Below are positions 4,801-59,010 of a stretch of DNA of 64,000 bases, in pieces. The notes beneath the pieces are model-generated. The model had not been told where the DNA came from. It saw nothing but the letters and a program-made list of their open reading frames with translations, and ran no database searches. Source of the stretch: Prorocentrum cordatum (lineage: Eukaryota); contig CAUYUJ010000001.1 in assembly GCA_963575745.1 (NCBI GenBank), positions 1,736,001 to 1,800,000 on the forward strand. The letters are read 5' to 3'. The translations under genes and the position numbers were made by a program. Numbering within the stretch: position 1 is the stretch's first letter; each line of letters opens with the position of its first letter.

Positions 4801-5279
4801 TGCCTACCCTCGCTGTCCGCCTTTCCTCGCCGGTGCCCTGTCGCCTGTTGCTCGTGCCCCATGACTCCTTGCCTGCCCGTGTAGCTCCCAAAGGGGCCGC
4901 GGTCGACCGTTCCCGTCGGTGGCCTGTGCCCCACGGCTCCCCGCCCATGCGCTCCCACCCCGCGGCTTGTTCTGCGCGGATGCCGTGCTCCGCACATCGC
5001 GTTCAGCATCTTCCCTCCCCCGCAAATTGAGCCTCGCGCCCACCACAGGCTGCATCCCGCACGCTGCACCCCGTCTGATCTCTGCTCTCAAGAATGTGAG
5101 ACACTGCCCCGAGGTGCTGGAGCTGGGGCTCCTGTGGATCTCCGCCGACAGACTCTACGCATGCTGCAGTCTGCTGAACGTCGCAGGCCTGTCGCTCAAG
5201 CAGCGGTGCGCGGCACTGGTATTCGCAGGCCCGTGGGGATCCAGCGATCGTTGCTTGTTTGCCCTCTATATCTATTTGT

Positions 5280-5547
5280 TTTCCTCTGTCTCTCTCTCTC
5301 TCTCTGTATCTCTCTCTCTCTTGTTCTCTCTCTCTCTCTACATATATCCCTCCCCTCTCTCTCTTTCTCCCTTACCTCGTTATTCCTCTTGTTGTTTGTT
5401 ATTTTCTTTTTGTTGTTTCTCTCTCTCCTTCTCTCTCTCTGTTTGTTTCTCTCTCTCTTTCTCCCTCTCTCTCACTCTCTCTCGTTCCTTACATAGATAT
5501 CTGTAAATATAGATGGCTCACTTTTCCAATGCCTCCCTCTCTCTGTC

Positions 5548-5579
<32 letters not shown>

Positions 5580-5680
5580 TCCGCACTCACACGCACACAC
5601 ACACACACACACGCGCACTCTATAAGTTTCCTCCTTGTTCATTTTGTTGTTTCTCTCTCTCTCTCTCTCTATTGCTCTCT
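5280..5680. repeat. (CT)n/(CA)n microsatellite complex, 5' flank of LINE A
   Basis: Read directly from the sequence. Confidence 0.95.
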
Positions 5681-5685
5681 TTTGG

Positions 5686-5751
5686 CTTGAGCCAAAATGG
5701 CTCAAGCCATTTTGACTCAAACCATTTTGGCTCAAGCAATTTTGGCTCAAG
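5686..5751 (+). other. Stacked relict dinoflagellate spliced leaders: one inverted copy plus three tandem 15-nt relics
   Basis: 5686-5702 is the reverse complement of AGCCATTTTGGCTCAAG. It is followed by CCATTTTGACTCAAA (5707), CCATTTTGGCTCAAG (5722) and CAATTTTGGCTCAAG (5737), matching the DinoSL 3' 15-mer CCATTTTGGCTCAAG. Confidence 0.93.
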
Positions 5752-5847
5752 CAATTGAATTGCCCTCTTTAGCTACATTCACTTCGCACCCTGATTCATA
5801 ACCCATCTGTTCTGTTTGCCGGGAGTGTGCACAGGATAGTTGGGAGC

Positions 5848-6860
5848 ATGGCAAAACGCGGGGGATCAGCGACAGGATCGACACCAGACAACAAGGAAGG
5901 ACGACAGAGTAAAGACAGTATGGCGGCTATGATCGAAGATGAGGAAGTGGGAGATAAGTATCTGAGCACAGCCCCTGATTATTTCAAAGAGTTCGCCAAA
6001 ATCCAAGCGAAGCAATTCGAAACTCTAAAAACAGAAATGGCTGGCATCAAGGACCTCATAGACCAGGCGAGGATCGAGGCAGAGGACGCCAGGAGGGCAG
6101 CGGAGGAGGCTCAGGAGAAGATGGAGGATGTGGAAATGGAGGTGGAGGCGATTCGGAATGACCTTGAGGAGATGTACCTAACCAAATCCGAGATCGAGAA
6201 GATGCTTGAAGACAAACTCCAGGAAGTGAAAGACACCATGAAGCACAGCAGTAGATCTTCCAGGAGTGGCGCATGGCAACGAAAGGGAGAGGAGGGTGGC
6301 GGACATGCAGACCAGGAGAAGGAACGACGTATTAAGCAGGTGGTTGCTCTAGGCTTCGATGGTGTAGCTAGTGCAGAGCAGGTAGTGGAAGAGATGCAGA
6401 AATACTACAACAACTTCTAGGCAATGGGTCCGATGCGAACGTGCTCACGACGACTGGCTCCAAGAAGTACGGCGTCATCGAGTTTCCCTCCGTACAGTCC
6501 AAGGCCAATTTCTGGAAGAATGTACAAGGTGCTTTGACTTTAAACGAACAAGCTTTTGGTAAAGTATTTTCCAAGAGCAATCTCACGATGGAGGAACAGA
6601 GTGAAGAAAAGCGATTGGGATATACGAAACATCTTCTCCAACAACACCCGGAACATTCAAAGCGGGATATAATAATAATTTGGGCGAAAAGTATGATAGT
6701 GATAAAGGACGAGGCAGGGAAGGAAAAGAAGATAGCATGGTACGACAGAAGGAGAGTGGCACGCCACAGCTACAGGGAGGGCAGTGGAGAAGACGGTGGA
6801 GGAGGCCATGCAGAAGTGGCACAACACGGTCAAGCTGGAGCCGGACACCGAGAGCGAGTG
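5848..6860 (+). pseudogene. LINE A ORF1 (coiled coil plus probable RRM-like domain), broken near 6420
   Basis: MAKRGGS... with an E/K-rich heptad stretch, then QVVALGF...KYGVIEFPS in the next frame (6441-6896). It lies just downstream of the SL relics. Confidence 0.65.
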
Positions 6861-6999
6861 ACGCCGCGGCAGTGCCTACGGAAGGGCACTAACTGATAAC
6901 AGTACCAGTACAAACATTACGTATACAATTTAAAGGTCAAGCAAATCAATACCATCAGCCTCCCAAGCAGTTTCTGCGACAGGGGGCGGCAGGGGCAAA

Positions 7000-9708
7000 T
7001 ATTTACATGTTCCTGGGGATGTGCCATGTTGTTTCCGACGTGTTGCTGACGATTCTCTGGGCATCTGCGCAGGAGCATCGACCGCGACACATTCGAGGTC
7101 TTGCAAAACAATGGCTTCGACACCACAGCACTCCGACTCCAGAGCTGTCCAGGCTGGGCCGCCAGAGCACGGTGCAATGCGACATGCTCTCCAAGACCCT
7201 CCGGAATGCCAGGAAGCGTAAGCTACATGCCGTCACCGGGGCAGGCTGCAACGCAGATATTGGTCCAGCTTCTGATTGCGACAACAGGCGGGCATGCGGA
7301 AAGCACGCGTATGGGAAGGAGAAACCCCGGGGACGGTGGTTGAAGCAATGGGCGAACGGCGAAAGCCTTGTGATTACGAATGCAATGTTTCAAAACAAGT
7401 GAGTGCTATTTATATACCTACCACCACGCACGGCATGGACTCAAACAGCTGGACTACATCATCGCATTAAGGGCCTTGTGGCGTACGACGACCGACTGCT
7501 GCACAACAGCGGTATTGGATTTGGGATCCGACCATGTGGCTGTGAAGTTGAGCAGCTTTATACTGAAACGACCTTCCGGATCCATCAACAAGAAGATGGA
7601 ATCGTCAACACGTACCGCTGCAAAGGTACGACCTTGGCCGCCACAGTCGATTTCTTCTTATGTGGATGTTTTAGAGCAGTCCGCCATCGCGTCTGATTTT
7701 GAGGCCGGCGACGTGGACGACAAAGCCTCCAAGATCGAAGCCTCCATCCGGGAAGCCATGGAGGCGGTTGGCCACGAACCACAGAGACGTTCCAATGATG
7801 CTCCAGCTGAGGATGCAGTTCTTGCCAGACTTCTGGGACGCCGCGGGGCAATACCAAAAAGCAATGCCCGGGAACGAAAAGACGTTAGCAACATTATCAA
7901 GAATCACATATCCAGCACAGAGCAAGCTAAGTGTTCAGCTCAGATGTCGCGCATTCTCGAAGATTTCACTGGGCTACAGAAGATAACCAACATCAGAAGT
8001 TGCAACAAACGGGTGCAGCTTACATCGATGCAGAACCGAAGCGGCAAAGTGACCTACGATAGGCGCGAGATGGCGGATGTATTTGCAGATTGTTTGAGGC
8101 GTTGTCCGCATGCAACGGCGATGTTTCACCACTGGACACACGGCGACAAGCCGAGACGAGCGAGCATGACGACATAGCGATCCGACAAATGGTGATGGAA
8201 GAGCTGGGCACACGGTTGCAGCAGCTCAAGACTGGCAAGGCCGCGGGCACCGCAGGAATTTCAGCGGAGATACTAAAGAAAGGCGGCCTCGCCTTGAATA
8301 TTGCACTCCTGAGTCTTTACGAAGATGCCATCAAGCCCAGAGCTACCGCGCCATCAGCTTGGAAGAAGACGAACTTGAAGGTTATGCTCAAGTCTGGGGA
8401 CTCGCAGTTGCCAGGGAGCTACCGGCCTATCTCCATCATCCCGCTGATGTACAAGCTTTTCTCCCGCATGCTTTATGATCGGCTCGAACCTTTTTCTGGA
8501 ACGTCACCAACCACCAGAACAGGCTGGCTTCTGGAGGCATTACAGTGCGGATGATATTCTGCTCTTGCTGGTTATGCTACAGGAGAAAGCATCGGGATGG
8601 CAAGTCCTTGCGTGGACCAAAAAGGTTTCGATCCAGTATCTCACAAATCCACGTGGGCAGCCATGTCATCGCATGGCGCCCCTGCACCTTACATCGCTCT
8701 TATGTCCAACTTGTACAGCGGACAGACAGCCTTTGTGGTTACATATGTAGAAGGCGAAGTTTTCGATATAGATTGCGGGGCCAAACAGGGGGACCCGGTC
8801 AGCTCTCTTTCCTTCAGCTGCTTGTCCGAGGAGATATTCAAAGAGAGCCAGACAAACATGGGAAAACGTCCATACGGTATGCGATGGTGTTTATTCGACA
8901 AAGCACGCTTGACGAACTTGAGGTTCGCTGATGATGTGATATTGGTTGGGGCGTCTTTGACACAAGTACGCAGGATGCTGGGAGACGTTACGGATGCATC
9001 CAGACGGACAGGCCTTGAATTACACCGAAGAAGACGAACATGTTGCACAGCATGAAAGCCCGGCGGCCGAAGAAAAACCCAGAGCACACCAGGGTTGGGA
9101 ATTGCGACGTTGAAATGTTGGCGTGCGCAACAAACACAAGTATTTCGGTCGACCGTTTACGTCTGGCAACCAGATAAAGGTGGAAAACCGACGCACGTAT
9201 TCAAGCCGCCTGGAAGAAGTTTGGGTTGTTCAAGCAGGAAGTGCTGTCGGTCATATCCACTGCGCGACAGATTCCGACTTTTTTACCGGCGTCGTGACAC
9301 ATACAATCTTGTACGGATGTGCATCATGGACAATGACAGCTGCTCTGGAACAGCTTGTGGTGGCAACTCAACGCCGGATGCTACGGATGATCCTAGGTTC
9401 ACCACGGAGACGAATGACCAATACCAGCGACAGCAGCACGAACGGCAACGGATTCGGCTTGGAATCTTGGGTGGGCTTGGATCCGACGCACCACGCACAG
9501 TTCAGAGCAGGCGTTCGCAACTTTGGGTTTTGAGCAGTGGTTTGACATCCAGAAACGCAGGAAATTGGAATGGGTTCAGAAGATCTCCAATTGCAGCCTG
9601 GACCGAAGGAGTTACAACGCGTATCGCTGGGACGCGCAAGTTTGCCAACTCGCAACACGGCGTCCGCGTCCACACGGGCCTCGAAAACGATGGGTTGATG
9701 CAATATGA
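7000..9708 (+). pseudogene. LINE A ORF2 (APE endonuclease plus reverse transcriptase), multiply frameshifted
   Basis: EN motifs: GCNADIG, RGRWLKQW, LVITNAMF, QLDYII, GSDHVAV. RT motifs: GKAAGTAGISAEILK, YRPISIIPLMYKLFSRML, EQAGF, GAKQGDPVSS, LRFADDVIL, KYFG. C-terminus GPRKRWVD. Confidence 0.9.
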
Positions 9709-9774
9709 AGGGCTACGGCCCCGCCGCCGACCTCTGTAGGAGGCGCTCCGGGCGCGCGCGCGGAGCGGCATCGG

Positions 9775-9880
9775 CGCTCGCCTCGCCTCGCCTCGCCTCG
9801 CCTCTGTCTCTCTCTCTCTCTCTCTTTCTCTTTTCGCTCTGTCTCTGTCTCTTTGTCTCTCCTCTCGCTTTCTCTCTCTC

Positions 9881-9911
<31 letters not shown>

Positions 9912-10212
9912 CCTCTCGCTATATTTATCTTTCTCTCTCTCTCTCTCTCCCTTTCTTTGTTTATTTCTCTCTCTCTCTCTCTTTCTCTCCCTCTCTCCAC
10001 ACATATATTCATATGTAATATATACATGTATATATCATACACTATCTCTTTCTATATTTATTTATTTCTCTCTCTCTCTCTCTGTGTCTCTCGCTCTCTC
10101 TCCTTCTCTCTTTTACTTGCTCCTCCTCATCATCATCACCGTCCTCCTTCTCCTCCTCCCCCTCCTCCTCCTCCTCCTCCTCCTCCTCCTCCTCCTCCTC
10201 CTCCTCCTCCCC
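9775..10212. repeat. (CCTCG)n, (CT)n and (CCT)n microsatellites, 3' flank of LINE A
   Basis: Read directly from the sequence. Confidence 0.95.
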
Positions 10213-12576
10213 CCGCATCCAATTCTCACGGCGCCGCTCCCCATCGGGTCGGCTAGCCACCCCTACGGCACATGGGGACATGCCGTCGTCGATTCCGCGA
10301 GATGAACTGCATCGTTTTTCTCGCACACGCGTGTGCATGTATACACGCAGTCTCTGGGCGGCCGCGATGCCGCCCCGCGCCCAGTGCCAAGGTGATGCAG
10401 CTCTGGCTGGCCGCCCCGGCCGCTCCAAGGCGATGCACCTCGCTTTGTGAGTGCCCTCCGCTCCCCCCCTTTTCCCTCCACCGCGGCCGCCCGCCCGTGC
10501 CCTTCGCCCCCCTTTAGCTGCCGGACAAGTAGCGCCTGCCGTTTCCCAGCCCGCTGGAGCGCGCGTGCGGGTTGCCTCTGCCGCATTGCGACGTGAAGAA
10601 CAGTGTGCGCACGCAGAACACACCTCACCCAGCGCTCGATGAACGCAGTCTTCTCTTGCGGCGTCTGGTCAATGCCAGCCTTCACTGGTCAGCCAGGTCA
10701 CCTTGGCGGGTCCGATCGATTCTTGGCCCGAGTTGGTTGTGATTTGTTGTGTTCGGTTTGTGTGCTGACCCACCACGCCAGAAGCCACAGGGGAAATATT
10801 CACGGCTAGTTTGTGTAGTCTGCTGCCCAGGAAGGCTACAAGGCCGAAGTCTTGATCACCCTTTTCTGTCATGCTTTCTTTGGTGGCGTTGCTTGGGCAC
10901 CGCGCCGACCCCATGCGCAGGCGGCGCAGTCATGGCAGTCTACGCTGTTACGTGGTGAAACATCATAACAGATTGGGGCGCGCTGCGTGATGAATCCATT
11001 GAGCATATATTTGTGTATGCGTGGTTCGTGACGTTTTGTATACCCTTATGTATACAGCTTTGTCGGAAAGTGCACGCGCGCCTTGTGTGACACCGTAGTT
11101 GATCTCACGAATGCGGCGGGATCGCCCTTGCCCGCAGTGCGGGTATGCCTGTCTGATGGATGCCAGGCTTTTCTATTCTGCATCATCTGATTCTTCCTCA
11201 AATGTGCACGCCCTGTTATGTTGCATTTGGGTGTTCCGGGGCGTGGCAGCGTCTGCCTCATTTCGTTTTTTGGGCCCAGTGTACGACCAAACGCTTACTG
11301 TTCCGTGCCAGCGATGGGTCACCAACCTCAGCGCAGCAGTTTGCCTGTGCAGAGGTGATGGCTCAGCAGCTCAGCGACATGCTACCAGGGCATCTGAAGT
11401 TCATCAGTTAGGGACCTGGCAGTTTTCATCGAGTCACCGCCCGGGGTACCTACCAGGTGGCTCATCCAACCAGCGAGCGAGGAGGAAAGACATAAAACGA
11501 ACATGGCTGTTCAACCCCTGCACGCCCCCCCGTCATCTGAAGAAGGCAACTGGGATCGGCCGCGACTGCTCCATAGTTTCCCCATGCCCAGACTCACTCT
11601 CATATCATTTGTCGTATTTCGTTTGCAATCACAGGAGAACATGATTCAAGGGCAAGCATGTGCACCCTCAAGAGGCCAGCCCCACTCGTCACCGTGGTTC
11701 CTTTTTAGCTTTATTTCCGAAGTCTGCCGGGGCAGCGCAGGACTTCTCGTGTGCTGTGCTTATTGCCCTCCCGCCGCGCTCTCTGGATGACCGCCGCTGC
11801 CAGGGGACCACCTGCCGCCACTGCCCTCCGCACCGAGCTCCACGTCCAACTCCGAGGAGGCAGCCGCCGTGAGGGCGATCCGGCACGTGGACGAGTCCAA
11901 AAGGTGCCGCCAATCTCTCGTCGTTGTCGTCGATGTCGTCGCCCCCCTGCTGCTGCCAGCGCATCGAACACCAGTTTGGCATCGTCTTTGAGTCGCTCCT
12001 GGAGGGTTTCGAGGTCATTTGAAAGAACCCCCAAAGGCCACCGAATGACAGTCAACCAGCATAGTAAGGCTGGGCAACCGTCCCAAGGGTACCCTTCCAT
12101 CCTTGCGTCCTCGGCCCATCCTTGGTCACTTTCGCTGGCCGTGCCCCGCTCGAAAAGTTCCGAAGTGTCTTTCCAAGCCCTTTGCATCCGCATCGCGCAT
12201 TCTTAGGATACGGCCCGACTGTAACCCAAAGAGCATCCCAAAAGGGCCCCTAAGAGGCTCCCAAGAGCGCCACAGGAGGCGGGGAGGGAGGGCCGAGCAG
12301 AGGCTCTGGCCTGCACGATCCGTTCCCGCATGCCCGGCCATCGCCGGCTCTTGCCGTGAGGCCTTGGCACGGCGGCCGAGCAGCCGTTGGATTTCAAAGC
12401 ATACGCGCCATGGCAGTTTCGAGCGGCGCAAACAAAAAAAAACAAAAAATCGCCCCAGGAGGCCCCAAGGCGGCTCAGGAGCGCCGCAGGACGGCCCCAG
12501 GCGCGCCAGGACGGCCCAAAGAGAGCCCCCCGACGAGCCCCCAAGCACGCCCAGGAAGTCCAGAAAGGGTCCAGAT

Positions 12577-12672
12577 CCTCCTCCTCCTCCTCTTCTTCCT
12601 CCCCCTCCTCCTCCTCTTCCTCCCCCTCCTCCTCCTCCCCCTCCTCCTCCTCCTCCTCCTCCTCCTCCTCCT
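12577..12672. repeat. (CCT)n tract, i.e. (GGA)n tail or target at the 3' end of LINE B
   Basis: Begins ~60 nt after the ORF2 stop codon on the minus strand. Confidence 0.95.
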
Positions 12673-12734
12673 GGCGCACACTCCAAGTCCCCAGGTCCGC
12701 ACATGACGCGGAGGGACGGCGCGCGCGCGTGAAA

Positions 12735-39847: not shown

Positions 39848-40860
39848 ATGGTGCGCAGTGGGAAAGGCGCATTGGTCGTGCGGCGCGGTGTGGGGACGAT
39901 CACAGCGCCCACGATCGAGGCGGCGGCCGCCTTGCTGCTGCTGCTGCTGCTGCTGCAGGCGGGGGCGCCGAGCAGCCCGCAGCCGGCGGCGAGGGCCGAG
40001 CGCGCGCTGGCGGGCGAGGACTCGGGGAGGCTTGGGCTGAGCAGCCGAGCGCAACGGCTGCTGGGCATAGCCGCGGAGTTGGTCGCCCTCTTTGGCGAGA
40101 CCACCCTCGCCAAGGGCTTGGCCAGGCTCCGCGACGCCGGGCGGCGGCCCCCGGCCCACCTTGAGCGCGCCTGGCGGGAGCTGGATGCGGTCAGCAGGCT
40201 CCTGAGGCACCCTGGGGAGGGTGAGCGTGCGCTGCAGGAGGCGCTCTGCTGGTTCGACTGCGGGGGCGACGCAGGGTCCAGCGAGCCCACGTGCACCACG
40301 GCGGGCCTCGACGTAGACTCACCCGCGGAGGGCTCGCAGGCGGCGCGCGACATCGAGGAGAGCAGCATGACGGAAAAGCAGAACGGCTTCGAGGGCATCG
40401 CGGGGTCTTGCGACCTCGGCTCCACCGACCTCGAGGAGGCGGCGGAGCTGGAGGGCGTGCACGACCTCGGCAGCGCCACCGAGGCCGTGATCTTCGACTG
40501 CGCTGACGCGGAGGGCCAGGAAGGCTTCGACCTGACGGAGTTCCAGGGCCTCGGCGAGAAGGAGACCGATGCCAGCAGGGCGGCCGTGGGGACGCTGGCT
40601 GGGGCATCGGCGGCGGGGGGTCTGTCGGCGGCTACGGCGGCTGGGGCATCGGCGACAGTGGTGGTGGCGGCGATTCCAGCTGTGGCTGTTGACGTGCTGG
40701 CGGCCCACATGGAGGCCGAGTGCGACGCGACGGAGGCGGACGACGACGACGTGTTCCACGACGCGGGGGAGGTCGTGCAGGACCCCCACGGCGTCGTCGA
40801 CGCCGAGGCGGACGCGAAGGCCACGCTTGGAGCGTGCTTGGCGGACCTCGCGGTTGATGC
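39848..40860 (+). pseudogene. LINE C ORF1, 5' part; continues in frame at 43486-43135 (-) if the inversion is undone
   Basis: MVRSGKG...WRELDAVSRLLRHPG...acidic region...LADLAVDA, joining VLVEYARSERWW...QGRKR* on re-inversion. Confidence 0.7.
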
Positions 40861-41700
40861 GCGCGACTTCCCGATGCCGCCGCAGAGTCGTCGGCGCACC
40901 AGAAAGCTTTGCCCCGCTTGCGTGGTACCAGGTGCGCGTGCATGTCCGTCACGAAGGGGTCCGCCGCCATCGCGAACGCCGAGCCGCTGGCAGGGTCTCC
41001 CTGCAGCACGCCACATCGGCACGCGAAGAGTACGCAGCCCGCAGCCGCCACCACGTAGGTGGCGACGTACTGCATCTGCAGCACACTCAGCAGCCCGAGC
41101 GGCACCCCCCACTTCCGCATGACGGCCCAGAGCCAGGTGTGCATCGCTGAAGGGAAGGCCTGCTTGAAGCCAAAGCTAAACGCCCACGGACGGAGGGGCC
41201 GCAGGGCGCCGCGATCAGCCGCGGCGGCAGCCCTCAGCAGGGCACCGGCGGCCAGTGACCTTGGGGCCCCTTCGGCGGCGTTGCGAAGGTCACCGACCCC
41301 CCGGGTCGGCTCGGGGCAGGCACGCTCAGGAAGCAGGGGATGGCAAGGTCTGAGAGCGTTCACACGGTCACTGGTGACGTCATCGTCAACCTCGTCCTGG
41401 TCAATCAGCGCGATCAGGGAGAGGTCCCGGATCAGCGAGTCGAACTCGACGAGGTTGCGCGCGGGGACCCGGCCAGGTACGAATCCCTGTTGCGGCGGTG
41501 CCGCCTCCGCCGCCACCGTGCGCCGCAGTGCGCAGTTCACCACCGCGGTGATGGCCTTCATGGATGGATGTGTTGCGCAGCGCCAGCGGCCGAGTATCCG
41601 CAGGTGCGCGGATGACCCTTTCGTCGCCGTCGGCGTCCTTGCCCCCCTTCGGCGGGAACACGCCGATGGCCCTGCTCGAGTCGGCGTACGAGTCGGCGTA
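40856..41700 (-). pseudogene. LINE C reverse transcriptase core (inside the inversion)
   Basis: FPPKG...TRPLALRNT, QQGFVPGR...NLVEFD, FKQAFPS..H.WLW.V, GVLQGDPASGSAF, CADD. Confidence 0.9.
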
Positions 41701-43491
41701 GGAGGAGGAGGAGGAGGAGGAGGAGGAGGAGGAGGAGGAGGAGGAGGAGGAGGAGGAGGAGGAGGAGGAGGAGGAGGAGGAGGAGGAGGAGGAGGAGGAT
41801 GAGGAGGAGGAGGAGGAGGAGGAGGGAGAGAGGTGACAGGAGAAGCGTGAACAGCGGATACAGCACCTCCCTCGTATGAAGAGCGGATGCGCATGCCATC
41901 CAAACCGCGTGCCCAAGCCCCCTCGCCCCTGCTTCCTCGTTCTCGTCCACCTTTTTCTCCTCCCTGTCCTCCCTCCCTCCCTAACACTCCCTCTCCCCCT
42001 CGCCTCCTCCTCCTCCTTCTCCTCCTGCTCCTGCTCCTGTTCCTTCTCCTCCTCCTGCTTATGTGGTGCGTACTTGTCCTTATCCTGTCCCATGTATCCC
42101 TCTCCCTCCGACTCTCTCTCTCTCTCTCTTTCTCTCTTTCTCTTCTTACTCTGCCCCCCTCAGAACGCCCGGGACTCTGCTCGCTGGCGTCATGGCCGCA
42201 AGTTGAATTCTGATATGTGGAGATTTCGACGACCCTGGCGCATTGGGCGAGGCGCAACAATACCCGACGGAGGACCGACCCAACCCTACAGCAGGTACAT
42301 ACGATAAGCAGTTTTCCTCTGGGGCCCATGTGGGGACGGTCGCTGAGTTTCCTGACATGCGCTAAGGCTTCTTTTGCGGGCCCCCGTGGCCACCGAAGGA
42401 TGAGAACAATCCGATTGGCGCCTGCTGGAAGGTTTGTCTCTTAATTGATGCAACTACTGTACGCAGCTTCGCGCAGCGCACGGCGTGACCCTGACGTTGT
42501 AGACTGCGCGCCGTAGGGCGGTGTGGACAGGAGGCTGCGGAGCCAGTGCCAGGTGGGGCGTGTGTTCTCCCCGATCCCAGCGAGCATGGTTTTATGATGC
42601 GACCGGTCTAGGAAGCGTTCTGGAGCACGTGTCGGCCCTCCGATCTCACTCCCTCGCACAACCCTCGGCGCGGCAGCGGCAAGGTCGAGGCCCAGCCGCT
42701 GGCGCGCAGCGCCGTCCCGGGGAGGCACGGGCGCCTCTCGCACCCAGCCCGCCCATCAGGGCGGCCAGCTCGCAAGCCACGCCGCCACGGCACTCATCGC
42801 CTCGGACGAGTAGCCCGACGGAGCCTGCCAGGACCACGCGGCGACGAGGACCCAAGACAGGGCACCGACAGGAGCGAGCGCCTTCCGAGACCCGCATGGG
42901 TCTCGGAAGCCACACGCCCCACCCCCGCGGGGAGGGCCCGACCCACCCAAGAGCCCAGACAAGAGACCCCAAACAACACCCTGGAAACCAAGGAGAGGTT
43001 TCCAGAGTGCGCCCCGGGACGGCCCCGAACCCGACCAAGAAACACGAGCCGAGTCCAGCAGGAGCGCACGTCTCCGAGCGCAGCTCACAGGCCGCCAGAC
43101 GCCTCGCGGCGCCGCACCAAAATGGGCGAGCAGGTCAGCGCTTCCGCCCCTGCCGCGGCGAGGCCTTCAGCTTCCGCCGCTCCCTTGAAGCCAGCTCCTT
43201 GCTCATGGCGTCCTCCGCCGCGCGCAAGTCGCCGTCGGCCTCGGGGACCTCGAAGCCAAAGTCCGCCAAGGAGCCCCTGGCGTTGGCGAACCACTCGTCC
43301 GCGGTGCCGACCGTCTTCAGGAAGGAGGGCGGCACGGTGGCCACAGCCCTCCGTCGTGCCGCAGCGCGGACCCGCTCCTCCTTCTGGATCGACGATCCAC
43401 CCGCCGTCCCTACTGTCATCCGCCTCTGGAGGCGCCTCCCCCGCAGCTCCCACCATCGCTCCGAGCGGGCGTACTCGACCAGGACGGCATC

Positions 43492-44600
43492 TTAGTACTG
43501 CGCCGCGTCTTCAAAGCCGCCGAGACGCTAGCGGGCCTGGTGCTCAACTTGGCGAAGTGCCAGGCGGTCCCGCTGCGGAAGGCGCCGCCCGACGACTCCT
43601 TCGAGGAGGCGAGGCTCTGCCTGGCCACGGTCGTCGAGGCCTGGGGCGTCTTCAAGGTGAGCGGCGCAATGGAGGTCCTCGGAGTCTGGCTCGGCCCGTC
43701 CGCCACCTCGGACCTCCAGTGGCGCACGCCGGTGGCCAAATGGCAGAGTCGGACGTCTGCGCTGGCGGCCTCCCCGCTCGACACCGCCACAATGCTCCAG
43801 CAGTGCGCTAGCCGAGCGACGCCGGTGCTGGATTGCAAGATGCAGCTCTTCGAGGTGCCGGTGGCGGTCGCCACGTCCGAGCGATTCCGGATCGCATCCC
43901 TGATGGAGACGAGCGCGAGCCTTCTCCCGAACGCGGGCTGGCTCGCCATGCGGGAGCGGGGAGGCGCGCCGCCCGTCCCCATCGCAGTGAGAGGGCGAGC
44001 CACCCTCGTGGGGACAGCCGTGCGCACGGTCCCGGGGTGGTCTCCGCAGGTGGCCCGCTTGCGTGAGCTGCCTCGGTGGGCGCTCCCGCCGCCGGAGCTG
44101 TCCCGCGGCCAGCTCGCGCCGGCCTGGTGGCCTGAACCGCCGATCGCCGCCTCGCTGGAGCTCGCTGCGAGAGGCTGGACAGAAGGGGGGGGAACCTTGG
44201 CCGCCGCAGCGGCCTCGGCGTTGGCGCGCGCGCTAGACGGCCCACATTCCCAGGCGAATCTCACCTCTGAGCCTCTGCCCTCCACCACCTCCTCCCCTTC
44301 GAGCCTGAACCTGTTCGCAAGACGAGGCTTTTAAAGTGGTTTCCCATCCCCCAGGGAGCCCTGGATGGGCTCTGCTTCGAGTTCGCGCGTGCGGGGCTGT
44401 TGCGCTGCCCTCTCAGGTGGCGGTACGCTGTGATCCGGTCGTGGTTGGGGGTATGGGTGACTACCACTAGGCTGGCCAACCCCGATGGAGACTGTCTGCT
44501 GGGATACGGCGATGGCAGTCGGGATTCTTTGAAGCACTACTTGACGTGTAGGCGCTTCAGCTAGTGCCTTGCCCGCGCCCAGGGTTTCGATCCCCCGTCG
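43492..44600 (+). pseudogene. LINE C RT thumb and C-terminal domain
   Basis: LVLRRVFKAAETLAGLVLNLAKC...VLGVWLGP...W..PVAKW; later SWLGVWVTTTRL...CLLG...DSLKHYLTC. Confidence 0.8.
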
Positions 44601-47600
44601 GACCCTCTCAAGCGGTAATTATGGTCTCGACGGAACGACGGATGAGCTCCGGGCTGGGTTTAAACATTTGACATGATGCTACCATTTCCATCGCATCCAG
44701 CATGCTGACCGGCAGCTTGTCCAGGTCGGTGTCCCAGAAATGGACTTGGAGAGGACTCGAGCCGCCCTGCTGGCCACCGAGCTGGCGTCCATTGAGTAGT
44801 GGAGTCTCGGGATCTCTCCCCAATTCGACGCTGCGCCTCCTCCTCCTCGTCCCCCTCCTCCTCCTCCTCCTCCTCCTCCTCCTCCTCCTCCTCCTCCTCC
44901 TCCTCCCCTTTGCCCCTCCTCCCCCCCGTTTTTCCCCCCGCTCGCTTCCCTCCCTCTCCCCGTCTCCCTCCTCCCCATCCCCTCATTACCCCCTCCCCCC
45001 TCTGCCCAACCAAGTCCACAGGGGCGTACCGAAGGTAGCGCCGCTCTGGTACTTCTCCGGGTGTGGAGCGCGACGTCTGGCGATGGCGTTATTGCATCAC
45101 TTCGTTCATTCCGCGGGCCGATCTTGCATCACTGCTGCTATCTGTGGGTTTGCTCGTGGTGGGCGAGGAGGAGGAGGAGGAGGAGGAGGAGGAGGAGGAG
45201 GAGGAGGAGGAGGAGGAGGAAGAGGAGGCGAGGAGGAGGAAGAGGCGGAGGAGGAAGCCAGGAGGAGGAGGAGGCGGAGGAGGAGGAGGAGCAGGAGGAG
45301 GTATCTCGATTGCTTCTTGGGACACTCTTGGGGCCAGACGGGGTCGTGGGCAAGATGCCTCCTCAAGAGGCTCATTGTTGTCTTTCGGGTGGCGTTGGAG
45401 CCCTCTTGGCGGTAGTTTGGAGACCTCTTGAGGCCTCTCCAGGCAGTCTTTTGGGTCGAAGCGATTCTCCCGTGGAGGCAGCTGTGCGACAGCGTTATTT
45501 CATTGAAGGGCTCCGAGGGGTGGGGTCAGACCCCGCCGCCCCACGTGGAACGCGGTCGCTTTGGTGACAAAGTGACGAGGTGCGAAGGCCGCGAGCAGAC
45601 TGCGGGAAGCTTGGCGGAGGAGGAAGGGGGCAGCGAAAACGAGGGCGCCCAGACGGCCCGAGTTGGCTCCAATACACTTCTAGGACAGCCCAAGATGCCT
45701 CCAAGATGTCCCGAGGTGGCCAGAGAGGCCCCAAGAGGCTCACGAAAGTCTTCAAGAGATGCTCCAAGAGGCGCGAAGGGAGCCAGAGATGTGTGAATTT
45801 GATGGGCCCCATTCGGCTTTGAATGCTCTTACCGGAGGGTGACATTTACTTGTACAAATTCGCTATCGAAGCCCAAAAACACATGCAGTCAATTTGTTAC
45901 CCCCCCCTTGCGAGCTGTCGAAGCATCCTGGGGGCCCGCCAGGGCGAGAAAGGTAACACAGCAAATCACACCTGTGCTTGCTCGGTGAGGTGGGCCCGCC
46001 CCCCCTGCGGGCCTTCCAGGGGCGCATGTTCGGCAATCGTGAGGTGTCATTGCAGCCCATTGGGCGCCATCTTGAAGCGTAGCGCCGATCGACCCGCGCT
46101 CTAGGACCGCTCTAGGGCTCTCTCTTGTGCCCTCGTAAGGCCCTCTCGAGGAGTATTATGGTCATGGTAGAGCTCTTCTGTGGCCCTCTTGGGGCCACCT
46201 CGGGGCCCGAGAATGCCGCTGGAGCCCGCTGAGGCGAGAAGGTACGTGTTTGTTCGATGATTCTGGAATTCCTGATAGCTTCCGAGGGGTCTTAAGCCGT
46301 CTGGGGTCATCTGGAAGTTTTTAAGGTACGCAGCTTGGCCGATCGTGGGCTATCTTGGGGCCATGTTGGCATCATGTTGGGGACATTTCGGGGTCATCTT
46401 GGGGCCACTATAAGGCCTGGCACGCCTTGGTCATTGCTCTTGGGGGACTTTGGCCCGTTCTTCGCCCGCTTTGGGGGCGACTTGGGGCCCAGTGAGGTCC
46501 GCAGACCCCAATGGGGCGCCCTCGCCCGGAAGGACTAGAAACATTATCGCTCAACCACAAGCGCATGATCTGGCCCACACCAGTATCTTAAACTCTCTTG
46601 GCCCGATGGGCTGGTGAATCTTCTCCTCCCTTCTACCCCCCTCCCTCCTCCCTCCCTCCCTCCTATGGCACGCGTGCAACGCAGCGTGTCGGATGCTGCC
46701 TACGCTTTGAGAGTCGTGCCCGCTGTGCTAGTCGTCGTGTCGGAGTGCCACCGTGCAGGCAGGGTCTTTCAGAACAGTCTGATTGAAGTATGTTGGCCAT
46801 AAATGGCCACTCGCAATCGTCGGCGAGCGAAGGAATTAGGACCACCCGAGTTCCACCCATGATCTTGGTGTTCCCGCCGAGGAGGTGCTGGACTCTTCTT
46901 CCCCCGGCGGCGCAGACTGCGTGGCCCTGCGCGTCAGAGTCCGCGACGCGATGGGGACGAACTTCATCCGTTGGCCGGGGGGCCGCCGGCTGGACTTCTG
47001 CGAGACAGGCCCCCGGCGGTGCTCGTCTCCAGAGAGCTGCCAGCAGGGAGGGGACGCTTCGCGCGGGGCGAGAATCGGCACTGGCGGATCGTTGGACCGA
47101 CTCGGTTCGGAGGCAGGGCTCCAGGCCTCCCAGATGAGGTCGGAGCAGATGGGTTCGGAGGATCGCGCCGCATCGCCAATGCATCGCCGATCTGGCGCGA
47201 CGTCGAGCCTGATTTTCTCCACCCCTGCGTCGCCGATGCATCGCCGATGTCGCCAATCCAACGCCGATGCATCGCCAATGCATCGGCGATGCATGATGCG
47301 GTTCGATCCTTCGACGCCCTTCATGCGATACATGATGTACTCGGACCCCATCTGGGAGGCCTCTAAAGGCCGCCACCTCTGAAAGCGATCCGCGCGCCAT
47401 GTGCGAGCGAGCGTGCCCCGTTCGCGGCACGCGTCGAACGATACTCCCAGAGTTTCTTTTCGCCCAGGCTCGTTAGCGCAGCTGGATGCCAGCAGGAGCT
47501 CGATGCCACGAGTGGGCTGGGGAGGTCGGCGTCTCCAGAAAGGCCCCATACCTCCGACGTCGGGAGTTCGTCACCGCGTGGGCCCCTGGATCTGGCGACC

Positions 47601-52039: not shown

Positions 52040-55000
52040 GTGGCGGAGCACGTAGCTACCTTCGAGGAACTCAGTAGACCAGTGTCGGCACAGCCACAGA
52101 CGCGGCACCCCAAGGTATCATCGGATGAGACACCACACACACATGGTCCGAGTCGCAGCTCGTCCGCGCGCAACCGCCGTGGAGCCCCAGGCCCATGCGG
52201 CGAAAGCAGGTCGAGCCCGCGCACTGCCTCTCAGAGGCCATGCACTCCCCGCGACAGGGGACACAGGGAAGCTGACGCTCCCCACCTCTCCATCTCAGAC
52301 GACCAGCTGGCGGAAACGTCCGCCGCAGGTGACATAGCTGAGCTCAGAGACCAGGTTGAAACCTTCGTGTCCAGCCAATACTCTGGACTACTACAGAGCG
52401 TTCAGACGAACGCCACCGACACTGCAGCCATACGCCGCGATCTTGACGGCGCCTTAGGGATCATCGATTCCAGGATCGCCGAAGATCGACGCATCATAGG
52501 AGAACTGCAGTACCAGGTTGATCGTGAGGTGTCACACTCAGGTGAACGAACGGCGATGGTCGAGAACCTGCGCAACTATCTCGCGCAGATGGAGCAACAA
52601 CTTGTGATCGTACGCGACACAGGCATTTCTGCGGTCAGGATTTTACATGATGAGATCCACGACCAGCTCCGCAACCGACCAACTCCAACCGAGGCCACAG
52701 ACCTTGGCGACGTTCAGTCTCAGATCAATGATCTTCGATCTTACCTAGACCACACTACGGCGACGCTTCGTACCGAAGCACACACAAACTCGTCGAACCT
52801 GATCGACATGTTGCAGCGTACTGAGAGAGTCATCACTCAAAGGCTTGATGCGACCAACGCTGTCGTGCAGCCACTCGCTAACCGGATCTCTGACATAGAG
52901 CAGCGTTTTCCTGGTGTACAGGACGCCCTGGCAGAGTTGCGTGTCGGACGAGCCCAGACTGATCAGCTGGATTCTCCTCCCACGGTTTACGATTTCGCCC
53001 GCCTCACTGACAGGTTGCAGGAGGTTGAGAAGGCGGCGGACCACACGCAGTTAGAGCTCTCCCAGGTTATTCATGAAAGAGATACTGAGAAGGTACGTGT
53101 AGAGAGTTACCTCGCACGTCTGGAAAGCGAGGTGGAGGCACAAAGCGCCCGTCTCCGAGCATACGAGCATCGACTTGATCGGTATTCACAACGGTCTCGG
53201 GATACTGACGAGTATACACGCCAAAAGGTGGGTCAAAAACAAGAAGACATGACGAGCTGGACGAATCAGCTGATCGACCACACTAACGACACCAACATTC
53301 ACCTTCGACCTGCAGCCGACCTGCTCAGGCCGACGGCAGCGTCCGCCGAAGCACCACAAGCTTCAGCAGGACAACAACGACGTACGTCCCCAGGAGCAGC
53401 CTCCGCGGCAGCTTCTGCACAGACACGTCATGTGTCTCCTGTGCGCACAGAACCAACCACCGACGGTGCACCGATACCCTCGCAGCCAGTGTCTGCGGTG
53501 TCGGTCCATACTACGACGCCTATCAAGGAGTCAGACACCGTCCGTGTACCTGTCTTGCCTAAGATCACGCAGCTGCTGGAGTGGCAGCAAAGAGTGCGAA
53601 AGAATTTCGGGGCCGCCTCAGGGCGACCATCCAAAGCATACGCCTTCCTATGCGTGGCAGAACAGCCCGAATGTACATTCGAGGATTTACAAGACAGTGC
53701 AGACTTTGAGAGCATCGATTGCAAACTCGCAACCGCTCTGAGCGACATCTTATCCTCAGACTTACGCTACCAAATCAGGCTCATCGAGACCAGAGAGCAC
53801 AAAGCAGGACACATGCTCAAAGGACGCCAGATATACTGGCATATCCTACAGTCCTACAAAGTGACAGACGTTGACGACGATCTGCACGATTTCGAGCGCC
53901 TTAAAGAACTGAGGATGAGAGATGAAGATTTGCAACGATTCGCTACCGATTGGGACGCCTTACTCTTGGAATGCCGAGAAGTACCCGATCCAAAGATATT
54001 GGAATCGCTATTTCGCACACAGATTCGTAGACATGCATGGATGAAACAAGACATGTACGAGTATCAGCGCATGAAGATGAGCGGCCCGAATCGTACCTAC
54101 GGTTGGCTTCGGCAGCGTGTCCTGGACATACTGGAGATTAAACAATTGGAGAAGAATCAAAACAAGCTACGGTACGAACATGAGACACGATCTCAGGTCA
54201 ACGTGTGCGCTGCATGGAAGAAAGGCAATTGTCGCAACGGTGAACGGTGCAAGGCTTTACATACATATTCCAGGGATTGGAAGACCAACAAATCTTCCAG
54301 AACATCAGCGGCTGGTGGCAACCCCCGCCGTAGCATGTCCACTCCTGCGAATCACAAGAAGCCGGCATCAAAGCCATTATGCTTCGATTTTGCCAAGCGC
54401 AACACATGTACCAGAGGTGATAAGTGTAACTTCCCACACGTCGCACAGTGCAAGGATTTCGCACAGAACAAGTGCACAAAAGGCGACAAATGCAAATGCG
54501 CTCATCTCGCACCTGGTGCAAAGACTCCTGAACGAAGCCCGAGTCGGCCACGGACTTCCAGCCGGGACAGCCGTGGCCGATCACCATCCCGCGGATCAGG
54601 AAGCCAACGGTCTTCACAACGCGGGGGGTTTCGCTACGCAAGCGATTCACGACAGGGACGTGACAACCGACGCCAATACGACCGATCCCGTTCGACATCC
54701 AGGAGGTCCCAAGACTCTCGCAGCCAATCGAGAAGTCGTTACGACAGATCTTCGAGATCTACCTCCCGAGGACGAGACAATCGTGGCGGCGGACGCGGCA
54801 GTCCACGCGGCCGTGATAGATCATATGGTAGTGACAAAGGACGTGGCAAGCGGTATCCGAGCCGCGGATCGTCCCGTGGTTCTCCCAACACTAGAGCACG
54901 TTCTCCTGCCAACTTTAGACGTTCACGCCGTTCAGACCGCAGTTGCGTCATCCGTGACAAGACCCTCATGGCCAACACTAAGGCCACAGCGACATCTACC

Positions 55001-57103: not shown

Positions 57104-59010
57104 ATTACAATCATACCCACAAGTGGGCACGTGACTTACCTAATTGTGGTGCAGATCATTTCTTCAAAAAGTTGGTGCACTACCTCGACCCAGAAACTAT
57201 CGAGGAGTCGACCACAGGCATCTTTCAATGGATTTCCAAAGTATACCAGCACATCTTGAAAGATAGTATTGCGGAGCTTCCAGATTTCGCCAAAGAGGCC
57301 ATCCATGAGAACCATCCTGCACTTCAGGCATTGCGTGACCTATTCAAAAATTGTACTGTGACATACGCTAATCCAGATTTTTCTGCATGGGAAGAGCTGG
57401 TGGAAACACCTGCTGCGCCTCGAGAGCAAGGCGCTGAGCAGGATATTCCCCAGGACCCAGGCAGCGTTGCGTCTGCAGCTCCCGATCAGGAAACTATGGT
57501 ACGTATCATAGCCGAGCAGACGGGACTCAAGCGCGAGGAGGGCGACAACGAGGCTACCTTGCAGGAGCAGGCTCGCCGTCTTCGTGAGGAGAACGTATGC
57601 CATGGCGGTACTGAGGATACCGACAACATCAAGATAGAGTACAAAGAACTGCCAGGGGAAAGGTTGTCTCGGATCGAGATCGAGGGTTTAAGCAGATCGA
57701 TCGCTTCCAGACCGAACGCCGAGATCAATCGTGAGGCGATCAATCAGATCGGTCAGAACCTCGCTCGCGGTCAGGACACCCGCTGGGGATCCCGCGATCA
57801 CCTGACTTCGGCTGGGGCCCCCGAGACGATCTTGCATCCCATACCGCTCTGTCAGAATTGCGGTCGAGATCTGCCCCTCGGGATTGTCACAGGTGACGGC
57901 GCACTTTGCGATATCTGTTGGCAATACACTGTGGCCGTAGGCGCCACAGGCAAGAGCACCGCCACACAGAGCGACTTCGCGTACCTGCAGAAATTGACGA
58001 ACTGGATCAAGACGACGTTGTCTGAGGATCAAATCGCGAGATACATGAAGGATGGTGCGCACGTCATTATGACGGGTGCGCGATCGCACATAGGCAGCGA
58101 GAAAGATCAGTTGCGGAGATTGGCCAATGCGTCCAAAAAGAGGTATCAGAAGTGGGTCGAAGCCGGTAGCCCGCCTGCACACGAGTGCAGATTAATGGGC
58201 GGATCCGAGGACGACCGGCCTCTGTATTACCCATTCGCCAATCTCATACAACGCTTTCTCAACGACCTCAAGTTTCATCATCAGATGACAGGTGCCCGCG
58301 TGAATGTCGGCAAGAAGCCCTGGACCGTCGAGGACATGCGCGACGCGTGGGACATCCTTGACGTCAGCATTAGGACAGGACAGGCTGGTCGGAGAAAGTG
58401 GTGGCTGAACGAGGGGCGCATTGACAGGCAGACGCGGCAGGCGCGCGGACTGGTTACGGTTTCTCTCCCTCGAAGGGACGGAACCCGTGAACAGTTCACC
58501 CAGCGCAAGCTTGCCGCGATCGCCAACGAACTGATGGGCTCCCTCGATCCGTCACACACCGACCAGAGGGGGGTTAGTACAGGGATGAGAACCGATCCCG
58601 ATACACAATCCCAACAGTCCGATGACGCCATGGAGCCGCGGCCGCCGCCGCGCCCGCCGCCGCGCCCTGCTCCTGGCGACGCTGCTGCGTCCAGCGCCTC
58701 AGGCGCGGAGGACTACACGCCCGCGATGCCGCGCGCCAAGAGAGCACGTACATCTGATTACGCTGCTTATTGGCGCCACGACCTCGAGGACAGCTACTGG
58801 GGTCTTCGATACTGGAGTTACTACATCAAATGTTGGATCTACATCGCGATCAACAACGACGAGTATGTGTACATCCAGGATATCACGTACAACGACTGGT
58901 TCCGCAACTGGATCCCGAGGACAACTTGGGAAACGTTTACGACAAGCTACGCGACGTACAACGGCCAGAGGGTGTGGGACCGCAGGTTCTACAAGGACGG
59001 CGACGCGTAG
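57100..59010 (+). CDS. Unknown 636-aa ORF inside the LTR element (CxxC...CxxC, W/Y-rich C-terminus)
   Basis: Long open frame in non-repetitive sequence, in the -1 frame overlapping the Gag-IN stop. Contains CQNC-x15-CDIC. No YVDD or RNase H motifs. Confidence 0.75.
   Translation: MNYNHTHKWARDLPNCGADHFFKKLVHYLDPETIEESTTGIFQWISKVYQHILKDSIAELPDFAKEAIHENHPALQALRDLFKNCTVTYANPDFSAWEELVETPAAPREQGAEQDIPQDPGSVASAAPDQETMVRIIAEQTGLKREEGDNEATLQEQARRLREENVCHGGTEDTDNIKIEYKELPGERLSRIEIEGLSRSIASRPNAEINREAINQIGQNLARGQDTRWGSRDHLTSAGAPETILHPIPLCQNCGRDLPLGIVTGDGALCDICWQYTVAVGATGKSTATQSDFAYLQKLTNWIKTTLSEDQIARYMKDGAHVIMTGARSHIGSEKDQLRRLANASKKRYQKWVEAGSPPAHECRLMGGSEDDRPLYYPFANLIQRFLNDLKFHHQMTGARVNVGKKPWTVEDMRDAWDILDVSIRTGQAGRRKWWLNEGRIDRQTRQARGLVTVSLPRRDGTREQFTQRKLAAIANELMGSLDPSHTDQRGVSTGMRTDPDTQSQQSDDAMEPRPPPRPPPRPAPGDAAASSASGAEDYTPAMPRAKRARTSDYAAYWRHDLEDSYWGLRYWSYYIKCWIYIAINNDEYVYIQDITYNDWFRNWIPRTTWETFTTSYATYNGQRVWDRRFYKDGDA

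Follow-up and report, generated by a model that had tools for sequence, protein, structure and literature searches.

Several non-long terminal repeat (non-LTR) retrotransposons, or long interspersed nuclear elements (LINEs), of trans-splicing organisms are tied to spliced leader (SL) sequence. SLACS, CZAR, and CRE1/2 of trypanosomatids and NeSL-1 of nematodes occupy a fixed site inside SL RNA genes and encode a restriction-like endonuclease. Another group, the microsatellite-specific LINEs Dong, Kibi, Koshi, Waldo, and Mino, has a repeat-type 3′ tail and inserts into a matching microsatellite. The Pr77 sequence of L1Tc/ingi elements in Trypanosoma drives unspliced transcripts that bypass the SL, according to the relevant portions of two reports (PMC1874656, PMC8190864). 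Here we describe three LINEs, E1, E2, and E3, in a 64,000-nt window of the dinoflagellate Prorocentrum cordatum (positions 1,736,001 to 1,800,000 of contig CAUYUJ010000001.1), each of which has the dinoflagellate spliced leader (DinoSL) at its 5′ boundary.

Dinoflagellates also carry SL sequence in their genomes as a trace of retroposed host genes, the "recycled processed cDNAs" reportedly so named by Slamovits and Keeling in 2008. Excerpts of three papers present relict SLs as marks of such genes and give both the model and the consensus (PMC7245778, PMC12014239, PMC5585692), the consensus being DCCGTAGCCATTTTGGCTCAAG in the first of them. Thousands of SL-tagged retrogenes are reported in dinoflagellate genomes; in the passages cited, their agent is unknown and LTR elements are favored (PMC5585692; a 2018 review), the review naming Ty1/copia. 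In the same passages of their paper, Song et al. (2017) propose that a TTT(T/G) promoter motif comes with the SL relict, and they read an enrichment of the gene ontology term "RNA-dependent DNA replication" among SL-tagged genes as activation of the machinery, without describing LINEs headed by the SL (PMC5585692). Our full-text literature searches turned up no account of LINEs whose copies start at an SL; the supplements of Song et al., which may list reverse transcriptase (RT) genes with SL relicts, lay outside their scope. Relict SLs on retrogenes are thus already known, and LINE copies that begin with the SL are what appears to be new here.

It is useful to compare this locus with each of these systems. 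Like the relict-DinoSL retrogenes, E1–E3 have a genome-encoded SL at the 5′ end of a retro-copied unit, and E1 shares with them the tandem truncated relicts, starting from CCATTTT, that mark repeated rounds. Unlike in the retrogenes, it is apparently an autonomous retrotransposon that is tagged here instead of a host gene, and a microsatellite takes the place of poly(A) as its tail. With L1Tc/ingi, the elements share the setting of a LINE under polycistronic transcription and SL trans-splicing, in which a conserved 5′ terminal sequence settles expression; the dinoflagellate elements differ in carrying the SL itself. The repeat tails and matching targets of E1, (CT)n, and E2, (GGA)n, resemble those of Dong, Kibi, Koshi, Waldo, and Mino, whereas the flanks of E3 are mismatched and the metagenome families sit on (GT)n, (AT)n, and other repeats.

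An earlier note on this DNA had set these elements apart from SLACS, CRE, and NeSL insertions, and the anatomy agrees. In E1–E3, the element itself opens with the 22-nt SL. Exon or intron flanks of an SL RNA gene are absent: the neighboring sequence is (CT)n, (GGA)n, or (GA)n, and the SL is followed by LINE 5′ untranslated region (UTR), with neither an intron nor a GT donor. A restriction-enzyme-like endonuclease C-terminal to the RT was not found; E2 and two metagenome loci (L125 and L164) have an endonuclease of the apurinic/apyrimidinic (APE) type, N-terminal to the RT.

Spliced leaders at the LINE boundaries

The earlier note had also placed a DinoSL at the 5′ boundary of three LINEs, about 100–110 nt before the ATG of the first open reading frame (ORF1), had seen no GT donor behind any of them, and had noticed no other close SL match in the window. 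These three observations hold. E1 starts with an SL array at 5686–5751 on the plus strand, which Tandem Repeats Finder (TRF) reports as 5.1 copies of period 15. E2 starts with a perfect 22-nt leader, ACCGTAGCCATTTTGGCTCAAG, at 19154–19133 on the minus strand, and E3 with a 22-nt leader, TCCGTAGCCATTTGGGCTCAAG, at 39715–39736 on the plus strand, which has one mismatch (G for T). From the end of the SL to the ORF1 ATG, the distance is 96 nt in E1 (ATG at 5848), 112 nt in E2 (19020), and 111 nt in E3 (39848). The two bases 3′ of the SL are CA, CC, and GG, respectively, so that no site has a GT donor, and the SL RNA gene arrangement of SL exon, GT donor, and intron is found at none of the three. 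An Rfam search of the window gave no hits, with the presence of a dinoflagellate SL RNA model in Rfam left unchecked.

The SL sites are real and non-random. We scanned the whole window for SL motifs and compared the counts with those expected. The 15-mer CCATTTTGGCTCAAG, allowing up to two mismatches, gave 6 matches against 0.14 expected, a count reached by none of 100 shuffles, and an SL 12-mer with up to one mismatch gave 5 matches against 0.33 expected. Both scans hit only the three sites, and neither gave a further close SL match in the window. The E1 array consists, in order, of an inverted unit (5686–5700, minus strand), GGCTCAAG, and three truncated relicts (5707–5721, 5722–5736, and 5737–5751) that start with CCATTTT or CAATTTT; CAATTTT and GACTCAAA are the units with altered bases. 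Thus, an SL is encoded in the DNA directly 5′ of the copied transcript in all three elements; E1 has tandem relicts cut at the internal AG (5707–5751), and E2 and E3 each have a single full SL.

To judge from their coding content and layout, E1, E2, and E3 represent three families of autonomous non-LTR retrotransposons. An RT is indicated in E1 by RVT_1, in E2 by database relatives with PF00078, and in E3 by a match to the E1 RT. An APE endonuclease N-terminal to the RT was found in E2, and none was detected in E1 or E3. There are no LTRs, ORF1 precedes ORF2, the 3′ tail is a simple repeat, and there are many diverged, 5′-truncated copies, all as in LINEs. The three RTs are unrelated or only distantly related, those of E1 and E3 being 30% identical. 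The three clearly different RTs of the earlier note (FADD, WVDD, and CADD) stand to that extent; its plus-strand CADD at 41605 does not, since it lies antisense to the RT and probably arose by chance, and the E3 RT carries WCADD at 40898 on the minus strand.

A microsatellite adjoins the SL at all three sites. In E1, (CT)n-rich blocks with a short (CA)n occupy the 5′ flank at 5284–5685 (TRF rows 5284–5339, 5418–5483, 5533–5579, and 5584–5612) and stop 6 nt before the SL array; in E2, (GGA)27 at 19155–19234 on the minus strand is continuous with the SL; and in E3, (GA)68 at 39571–39705 on the plus strand stops 9 nt before it. The repeat on the other side matches in E1, (CT)n, and in E2, (GGA)n. 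Both ends of these two elements lie inside microsatellites, so that no discrete target-site duplication can be read. We considered the upstream microsatellite as part of the element RNA and dropped the idea, since it lies 5′ of the capped leader. Overall, the evidence supports the SL as the 5′ terminus of three unrelated LINE insertions, and not as an SL RNA gene or an insertion targeted to one.

Leader-headed loci in metagenomes

The same layout extends beyond the window, to environmental dinoflagellate DNA. We scanned metagenome contigs for an exact pattern, GGD followed by the 21-nt SL, and thus required a perfect SL with a preceding GG. At least 119 loci carry it; those listed represent 108 distinct contexts, 55 of which have at least 600 nt downstream. 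Many of the listed loci are ordinary genes or transcripts, including arginine kinase, glutathione S-transferase, ribosomal protein S3Ae, and eIF3I. Among the matches listed, however, are at least eight further SL-headed LINE loci in three families. In L125, the SL is followed by a 578-aa ORF1 and an ORF2 with Exo_endo_phos_2 (E 1.1e-9) and RVT_1 (E 4.2e-10). In L164, it is followed by ORF1 and a long ORF with OTU (E 2e-5) and Exo_endo_phos (E 3.8e-8) domains. L190 has tandem SLs, in the order full SL, CCATTTTGG, T, full SL, followed by ORF1 and an endonuclease (phmmer match to the E2 endonuclease, E 1.1e-5; Pfam E 3.8e-4, under the cut-off). Three more loci, L178, L167, and L147, are candidates by eye only.

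The ORF1 of L164 has relatives in L158, L149, L186, L225, and L206 (E 1.5e-37 to 6e-6), all in the sense orientation and downstream of the SL. By eye, members of this family share one layout: an unrelated flank, (GT)n, GGG, the SL, a common 5′ UTR, and the start context ATG GGA TGG. The earlier note had suggested aligning the 5′ ends of family members to see where homology stops; here, the members become alike only from the (GT)n tract and SL onward, their outer flanks being unrelated, an outcome in favor of the note. Five of the six members carry one full SL and lack a truncated relict 3′ of it; L164 has a near-complete second SL directly behind the first. In the 5′ UTRs of L149, L158, L186, L206, and L225, an older SL-like piece lies 26–42 nt behind the perfect terminal SL and reads TCCGTAGCC, 20–25 variable nucleotides, and (C)TCAAG.

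Of the 99 listed loci with enough upstream sequence, 10 have a perfect microsatellite no more than 8 nt from the SL. Among the LINE-like loci, this holds for 4 of 10, and two more have an interrupted tract 12–14 nt away. The window LINE proteins, compared with the 119 listed loci by tblastn, matched only L180; a protein-guided metagenome search with E2 ORF1 gave 455 pattern stretches, none of them confirmed; and a custom endonuclease hidden Markov model recovered only its four seed loci.

Routes by which the leader may enter the DNA

We consider it probable that E1–E3 belong to three LINE families whose RNA intermediate carries the 22-nt SL at its 5′ end, and that full-length reverse transcription writes this SL into DNA. 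First, as established dinoflagellate biology suggests, the LINE transcript would receive the DinoSL by trans-splicing, as nuclear mRNAs do. Second, as the anatomy shows, target-primed reverse transcription proceeds to the extreme 5′ end, so that a full-length copy begins with the SL and adjoins target DNA. Third, further rounds would add the SL anew. Such renewal can be seen in the truncated relicts of E1, the three units of L190, and the two full units of L164, and the other elements may have undergone it as well. The choice of acceptor would shape the product: use of the internal AG (CCGTAG/CC) would pile up shortened relicts in tandem, the state of E1; an acceptor at the old SL or upstream of it would give one or two full copies; and the terminal AG of the SL would let a new leader replace the old one precisely, so that only one SL is kept, the state of E2 and E3. 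Fourth, microsatellites form both the 3′ tail of the elements and the sites into which they insert, a pattern that could arise if the tail anneals to a nicked repeat and primes synthesis. Indeed, the presence of the same repeat on both sides of E1 and E2 fits such priming. Finally, and as a proposal only, the retroposed SL would provide the new copy with a splice acceptor for read-through transcripts or with a TTTT promoter motif.

Several observations weigh against this reading. Trans-splicing of the LINE transcripts is a step that we infer, and the SL could instead be inherited as DNA. The specific suggestion of the earlier note, trans-splicing at the internal AG of the SL, survives only in part: the tandem truncated relicts of E1 are as expected, whereas E2, E3, and five of the six (GT)n members show one full SL and lack truncated relicts, an outcome not predicted if the internal AG is used repeatedly. 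For these single-SL copies, use of the terminal AG or initiation at the SL is the better fit. The sense-strand flank before the SL is purine-rich in E2, (GGA)n, and E3, (GA)n, and is poorly suited as the polypyrimidine tract of a 3′ splice site. All three copies in the window are defective, E1 through many frameshifts, E2 through an ORF2 spread over three frames, and E3 through an inversion; in addition, the repeats 3′ of E3 differ from its 5′ (GA)n. The metagenome scan yields no frequencies and is blind to copies without a perfect SL. An even-handed Pfam scan for endonuclease and RT found one locus in 82 downstream-sense ORFs (at least 150 aa) versus none in 107 controls (at least 170 aa), an enrichment that is not significant. 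In L180, finally, the RT lies upstream of the SL and antisense to it.

The genomic setting of E1 and E2 bears on how such copies might be expressed. An exon-like piece of an expressed host gene lies at 11801–11907, covered by RNA contigs of runs X10, X14, and X19 with 0 differing letters. The loose ends of these contigs each occur once in the window, at 5196–5225 and 21338–21367: the RNA joins 5225 to 11801 and 11907 to 21338, with E1 in the first skipped block and E2 in the second. These blocks are probably introns of the expressed gene. They measure 6.6 and 9.4 kb, and the second is bounded by a 5-nt direct repeat, GGTGC. GT-AG ends were absent from the skipped blocks on either strand. Since E1 and E2 lie inside blocks that host-gene RNA skips, read-through transcription is plausible. 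A bolder version of the SL-capped reading, which we hold only tentatively and think doubtful as a whole, is that dinoflagellate LINEs depend obligatorily on the host SL system, have no promoter, and ride host pre-mRNAs or gene arrays, as the position of E1 and E2 in spliced-out blocks may suggest. The AGs of the SL would release and cap the element RNA, the terminal AG renewing the leader and the internal AG stacking relicts, and reverse transcription would rebuild the acceptor; microsatellite-targeting APE-type LINEs, and not Ty1/copia, would then have made the DinoSL retrogenes.

Among competing explanations, the one that survives best dispenses with trans-splicing. It supposes that the SL was captured once in the ancestor of each family and is now a fixed part of the 5′ UTR, that transcripts initiate from an internal or SL-borne promoter, the latter being the TTT(T/G) motif, with their start on the first base of the SL or close to it, and that the SL is copied in each cycle and kept by selection on active copies. 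The single full SLs at E2, E3, and the five (GT)n loci are what such a history would leave, and many LINEs elsewhere use internal promoters that start at base 1. DinoSL relicts 50–100 nt before the start codon have, moreover, been argued to be promoters, in the passages cited of Song et al. 2017 (PMC5585692) and of the 2018 review, and the window SLs stand at 96–112 nt. However, this history requires a separate event for each of three unrelated families within 64 kb, and again for the metagenome families, and E1, L190, and L164 show repeated additions. Furthermore, strongly diverged (GT)n 5′ UTRs keep a perfect terminal SL while the older inner piece has decayed, a comparison made by eye and biased in that a perfect SL was required. 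We regard one-time capture as unlikely.

It is far less probable that the SL was joined at integration, when the reverse transcriptase, on reaching the LINE RNA 5′ end, jumped to SL RNA or to another SL-capped RNA. The U6-L1 chimeras of mammals are a precedent for such template switching. The inverted unit at the head of the E1 array and the unit order of L190 resemble template jumps or fold-back priming, and both E3 and L180 hold rearranged LINE pieces. Yet only the 22-nt exon is ever present, never the SL RNA intron, and no GT follows the SL; nor does the SL sit at random truncation points, its position being constant, with a full 5′ UTR before ORF1. A coincidence of neighbors, in which LINEs inserted just downstream of SL relicts of older retrogenes or host 5′ ends, or an origin from SL-gene-targeting elements, is the least probable explanation and is largely refuted by the anatomy: relict SLs do precede >20% of dinoflagellate genes, according to the cited parts of two papers (PMC5585692, PMC11453091), but all three SL sites in the window lie 96–112 nt before a LINE ORF1, in sense, with no other SL in 64 kb, the same layout recurs in independent metagenome contigs, SL RNA gene features are absent, and the flanks are microsatellites.

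If LINE RNA does carry the SL into DNA, the consequences may reach beyond these elements. Non-LTR elements that copy leader-capped RNA to its extreme 5′ end would be a concrete candidate for the machinery behind the retrogenes. If, in addition, the SL acts as a portable acceptor or promoter, this would explain how a LINE stays expressible in a genome with few conventional promoters, and the succession of microsatellite, SL, about 100 nt, and ORF1 would serve as a simple marker of full-length, recently active elements.

Anatomy of the elements and their surroundings

E1 extends on the plus strand from 5686 to about 9776. Its 96-nt 5′ UTR (5752–5847) leads into ORF1 (5848–6420), within an open frame at 5773–6420; the predicted product is of the coiled-coil type, to judge from weak coiled-coil Pfam matches that all fall under their cut-offs. 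The RT, split by frameshifts, occupies 8063–9055 and has its FADD motif at 8924. RVT_1 matches 8555–9055 with E 2.9e-9 and 37.4 bits, above the cut-off, and 8063–8554 with E 0.0026. No apurinic-like endonuclease was detected by Pfam on the E1 ORFs. The 3′ tail and flank at 9777–10210 consist of (CTCGC)5, (CT)n of about 200 bp, (TC)n, and (CTC)n.

E2 extends on the minus strand from 19154 to 12673. A 112-nt 5′ UTR (19132–19021) precedes ORF1 (17809–19020), whose predicted 403-aa product carries a Cys-rich motif at the N terminus, ahead of a coiled coil. Pfam recognized no zf-RanBP among the Cys-rich ORF1 motifs in any of seven segments, and the zinc finger is a reading by eye only. The APE-type endonuclease lies at 17085–17663 (Exo_endo_phos, E 1.8e-6, 28.3 bits, above the cut-off of 24.5). 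The RT ORF at 14815–16878, with WVDD at 15057, is in a frame different from both neighboring ORFs. It has nine database relatives, four of them with PF00078 and one with PF00075, and a direct Pfam search of this ORF gave no match. The C-terminal ORF (12735–14723) comprises a putative RNase H (13290–13676; RNase_H, E 7.8e-5, 23.3 bits, under the cut-off of 25.8) and a Cys/His-rich end. A 62-nt 3′ UTR (12734–12673) and a (GGA)32 tail (12576–12672) follow. The E2 proteins matched nothing else in the window, and phmmer searches of E2 and E3 pieces against PDB gave weak or low-complexity matches only, the best being an R2 protein at E 0.33.

The family to which E2 belongs can be gauged from DNA run X1, for which we summed contig word depth over a 10-kb stretch containing E2, a depth that is not a copy number. 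It ranges from 2 to 21 over E2, climbing from 5′ to 3′, and falls to 0.18 in the bin just past the SL and to 2.4 past the 3′ tail. Among the 480 X1 contigs on this stretch, 426 are less than 95% alike. We read the family as diverged and mostly 5′-truncated, with boundaries that match the SL and the tail. Contigs break at microsatellites, so that the family boundary at the SL cannot be read from contig ends. RNA-run contigs cover only 12717–13699 of E2, besides 35-nt low-complexity pieces, and none covers its 5′ end or SL. On either side of E2, at 11960–12301 and 19826–20167, lies a short repeat of GGCCCCAAGA-like 11- and 21-mers, with summed X1 contig depths of 2049 and 83, respectively; X1 contigs link 12271–12280 to 19953–19978 with filler letters between.

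E3 is a plus-strand LINE; the SL forms its start, and an internal block of 2.6 kb is inverted. Its 111-nt 5′ UTR (39737–39847) is followed by the N-terminal 342 aa of ORF1 (39848–40873, plus strand), a region with a strong codon-position GC pattern. The closest database protein, a 380-aa Prorocentrum cordatum relative (P0002, E 1.1e-117), aligns from 39848 to about 40873 on the plus strand, and its last 105 residues align at 43468–43138 on the minus strand (tblastn E 2.5e-30). The minus strand at 41165–40881 matches the E1 RT (E 6.8e-7) and ends in WCADD at 40898; plus-strand coding resumes at about 43400–43486. Together, the strand-split alignment, the minus-strand RT match, and the resumed plus-strand coding point to an internally inverted LINE.

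The inverted block spans 40874–43485 on the minus strand, with breakpoints placed to within about 13–17 nt from the two matches and the junction sequences, and contains the ORF1 C terminus (43474–43138) and the N-terminal half of the RT (about 41650–40881). Both breakpoints interrupt coding regions, ORF1 in one case and the RT at its YxDD box in the other, and the junctions show a short GAC/GACGAC similarity. The C-terminal half of the RT and a Cys/His end, frameshifted, follow at 43486–44563 on the plus strand, as judged from the plus-strand coding pattern at 43400–44300 and from motifs seen by eye; the 3′ end of E3 lies somewhere between 44563 and about 45164. Pfam gave no matches on eight plus-strand E3 ORFs, and hence no endonuclease was detected there; neither Pfam nor PDB searches matched the C-terminal RT piece.

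Elsewhere in the window, a 152-bp unit is repeated 13.7 times at 99% identity at 24019–26803, and a (GA)n tract of about 700 bp comes directly after it. At 52040–59010, a pair of long ORFs on the plus strand (1687 and 636 aa) includes a CCCH zinc finger and a weak match to the integrase core (rve, E 1.8e-4, under the cut-off). This pair may be another kind of retroelement, and no SL lies nearby.

We also scanned IMG/VR for the SL; the contigs recovered were mostly from giant viruses, one resembled an RNA virus, and none held a LINE. The exact 21-nt DinoSL occurs in 119 IMG/VR stretches (L001–L119; for example, L011–L013, L024, and L061), mostly in GVMAG bins and in 134 distinct contexts. Its surroundings are regular: of 132 contexts that extend far enough upstream, 123 have AT-rich DNA ahead of the leader, with A as the invariant base next to CCGTAG, and a TGA[TA]A motif stands 43–45 nt upstream of the SL in 102 of the 123. 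The median distance to the first downstream ATG is 46 nt, and 92 of 109 have an ORF of at least 100 aa behind the SL. Some of these SL-led genes are GC-rich within AT-rich surroundings. On this layout, the contigs look like dinoflagellate giant viruses with the host leader written into each gene start, at a fixed distance from a promoter; a literature search on giant viruses encoding a host leader found no such title. Finally, a 3.8-kb GC-rich contig (L049, 1–3764) has a full DinoSL at 177–197, preceded by 176 nt of sequence, and holds a single 1091-aa ORF with a GDGDD motif, which likely encodes an RNA-dependent RNA polymerase.

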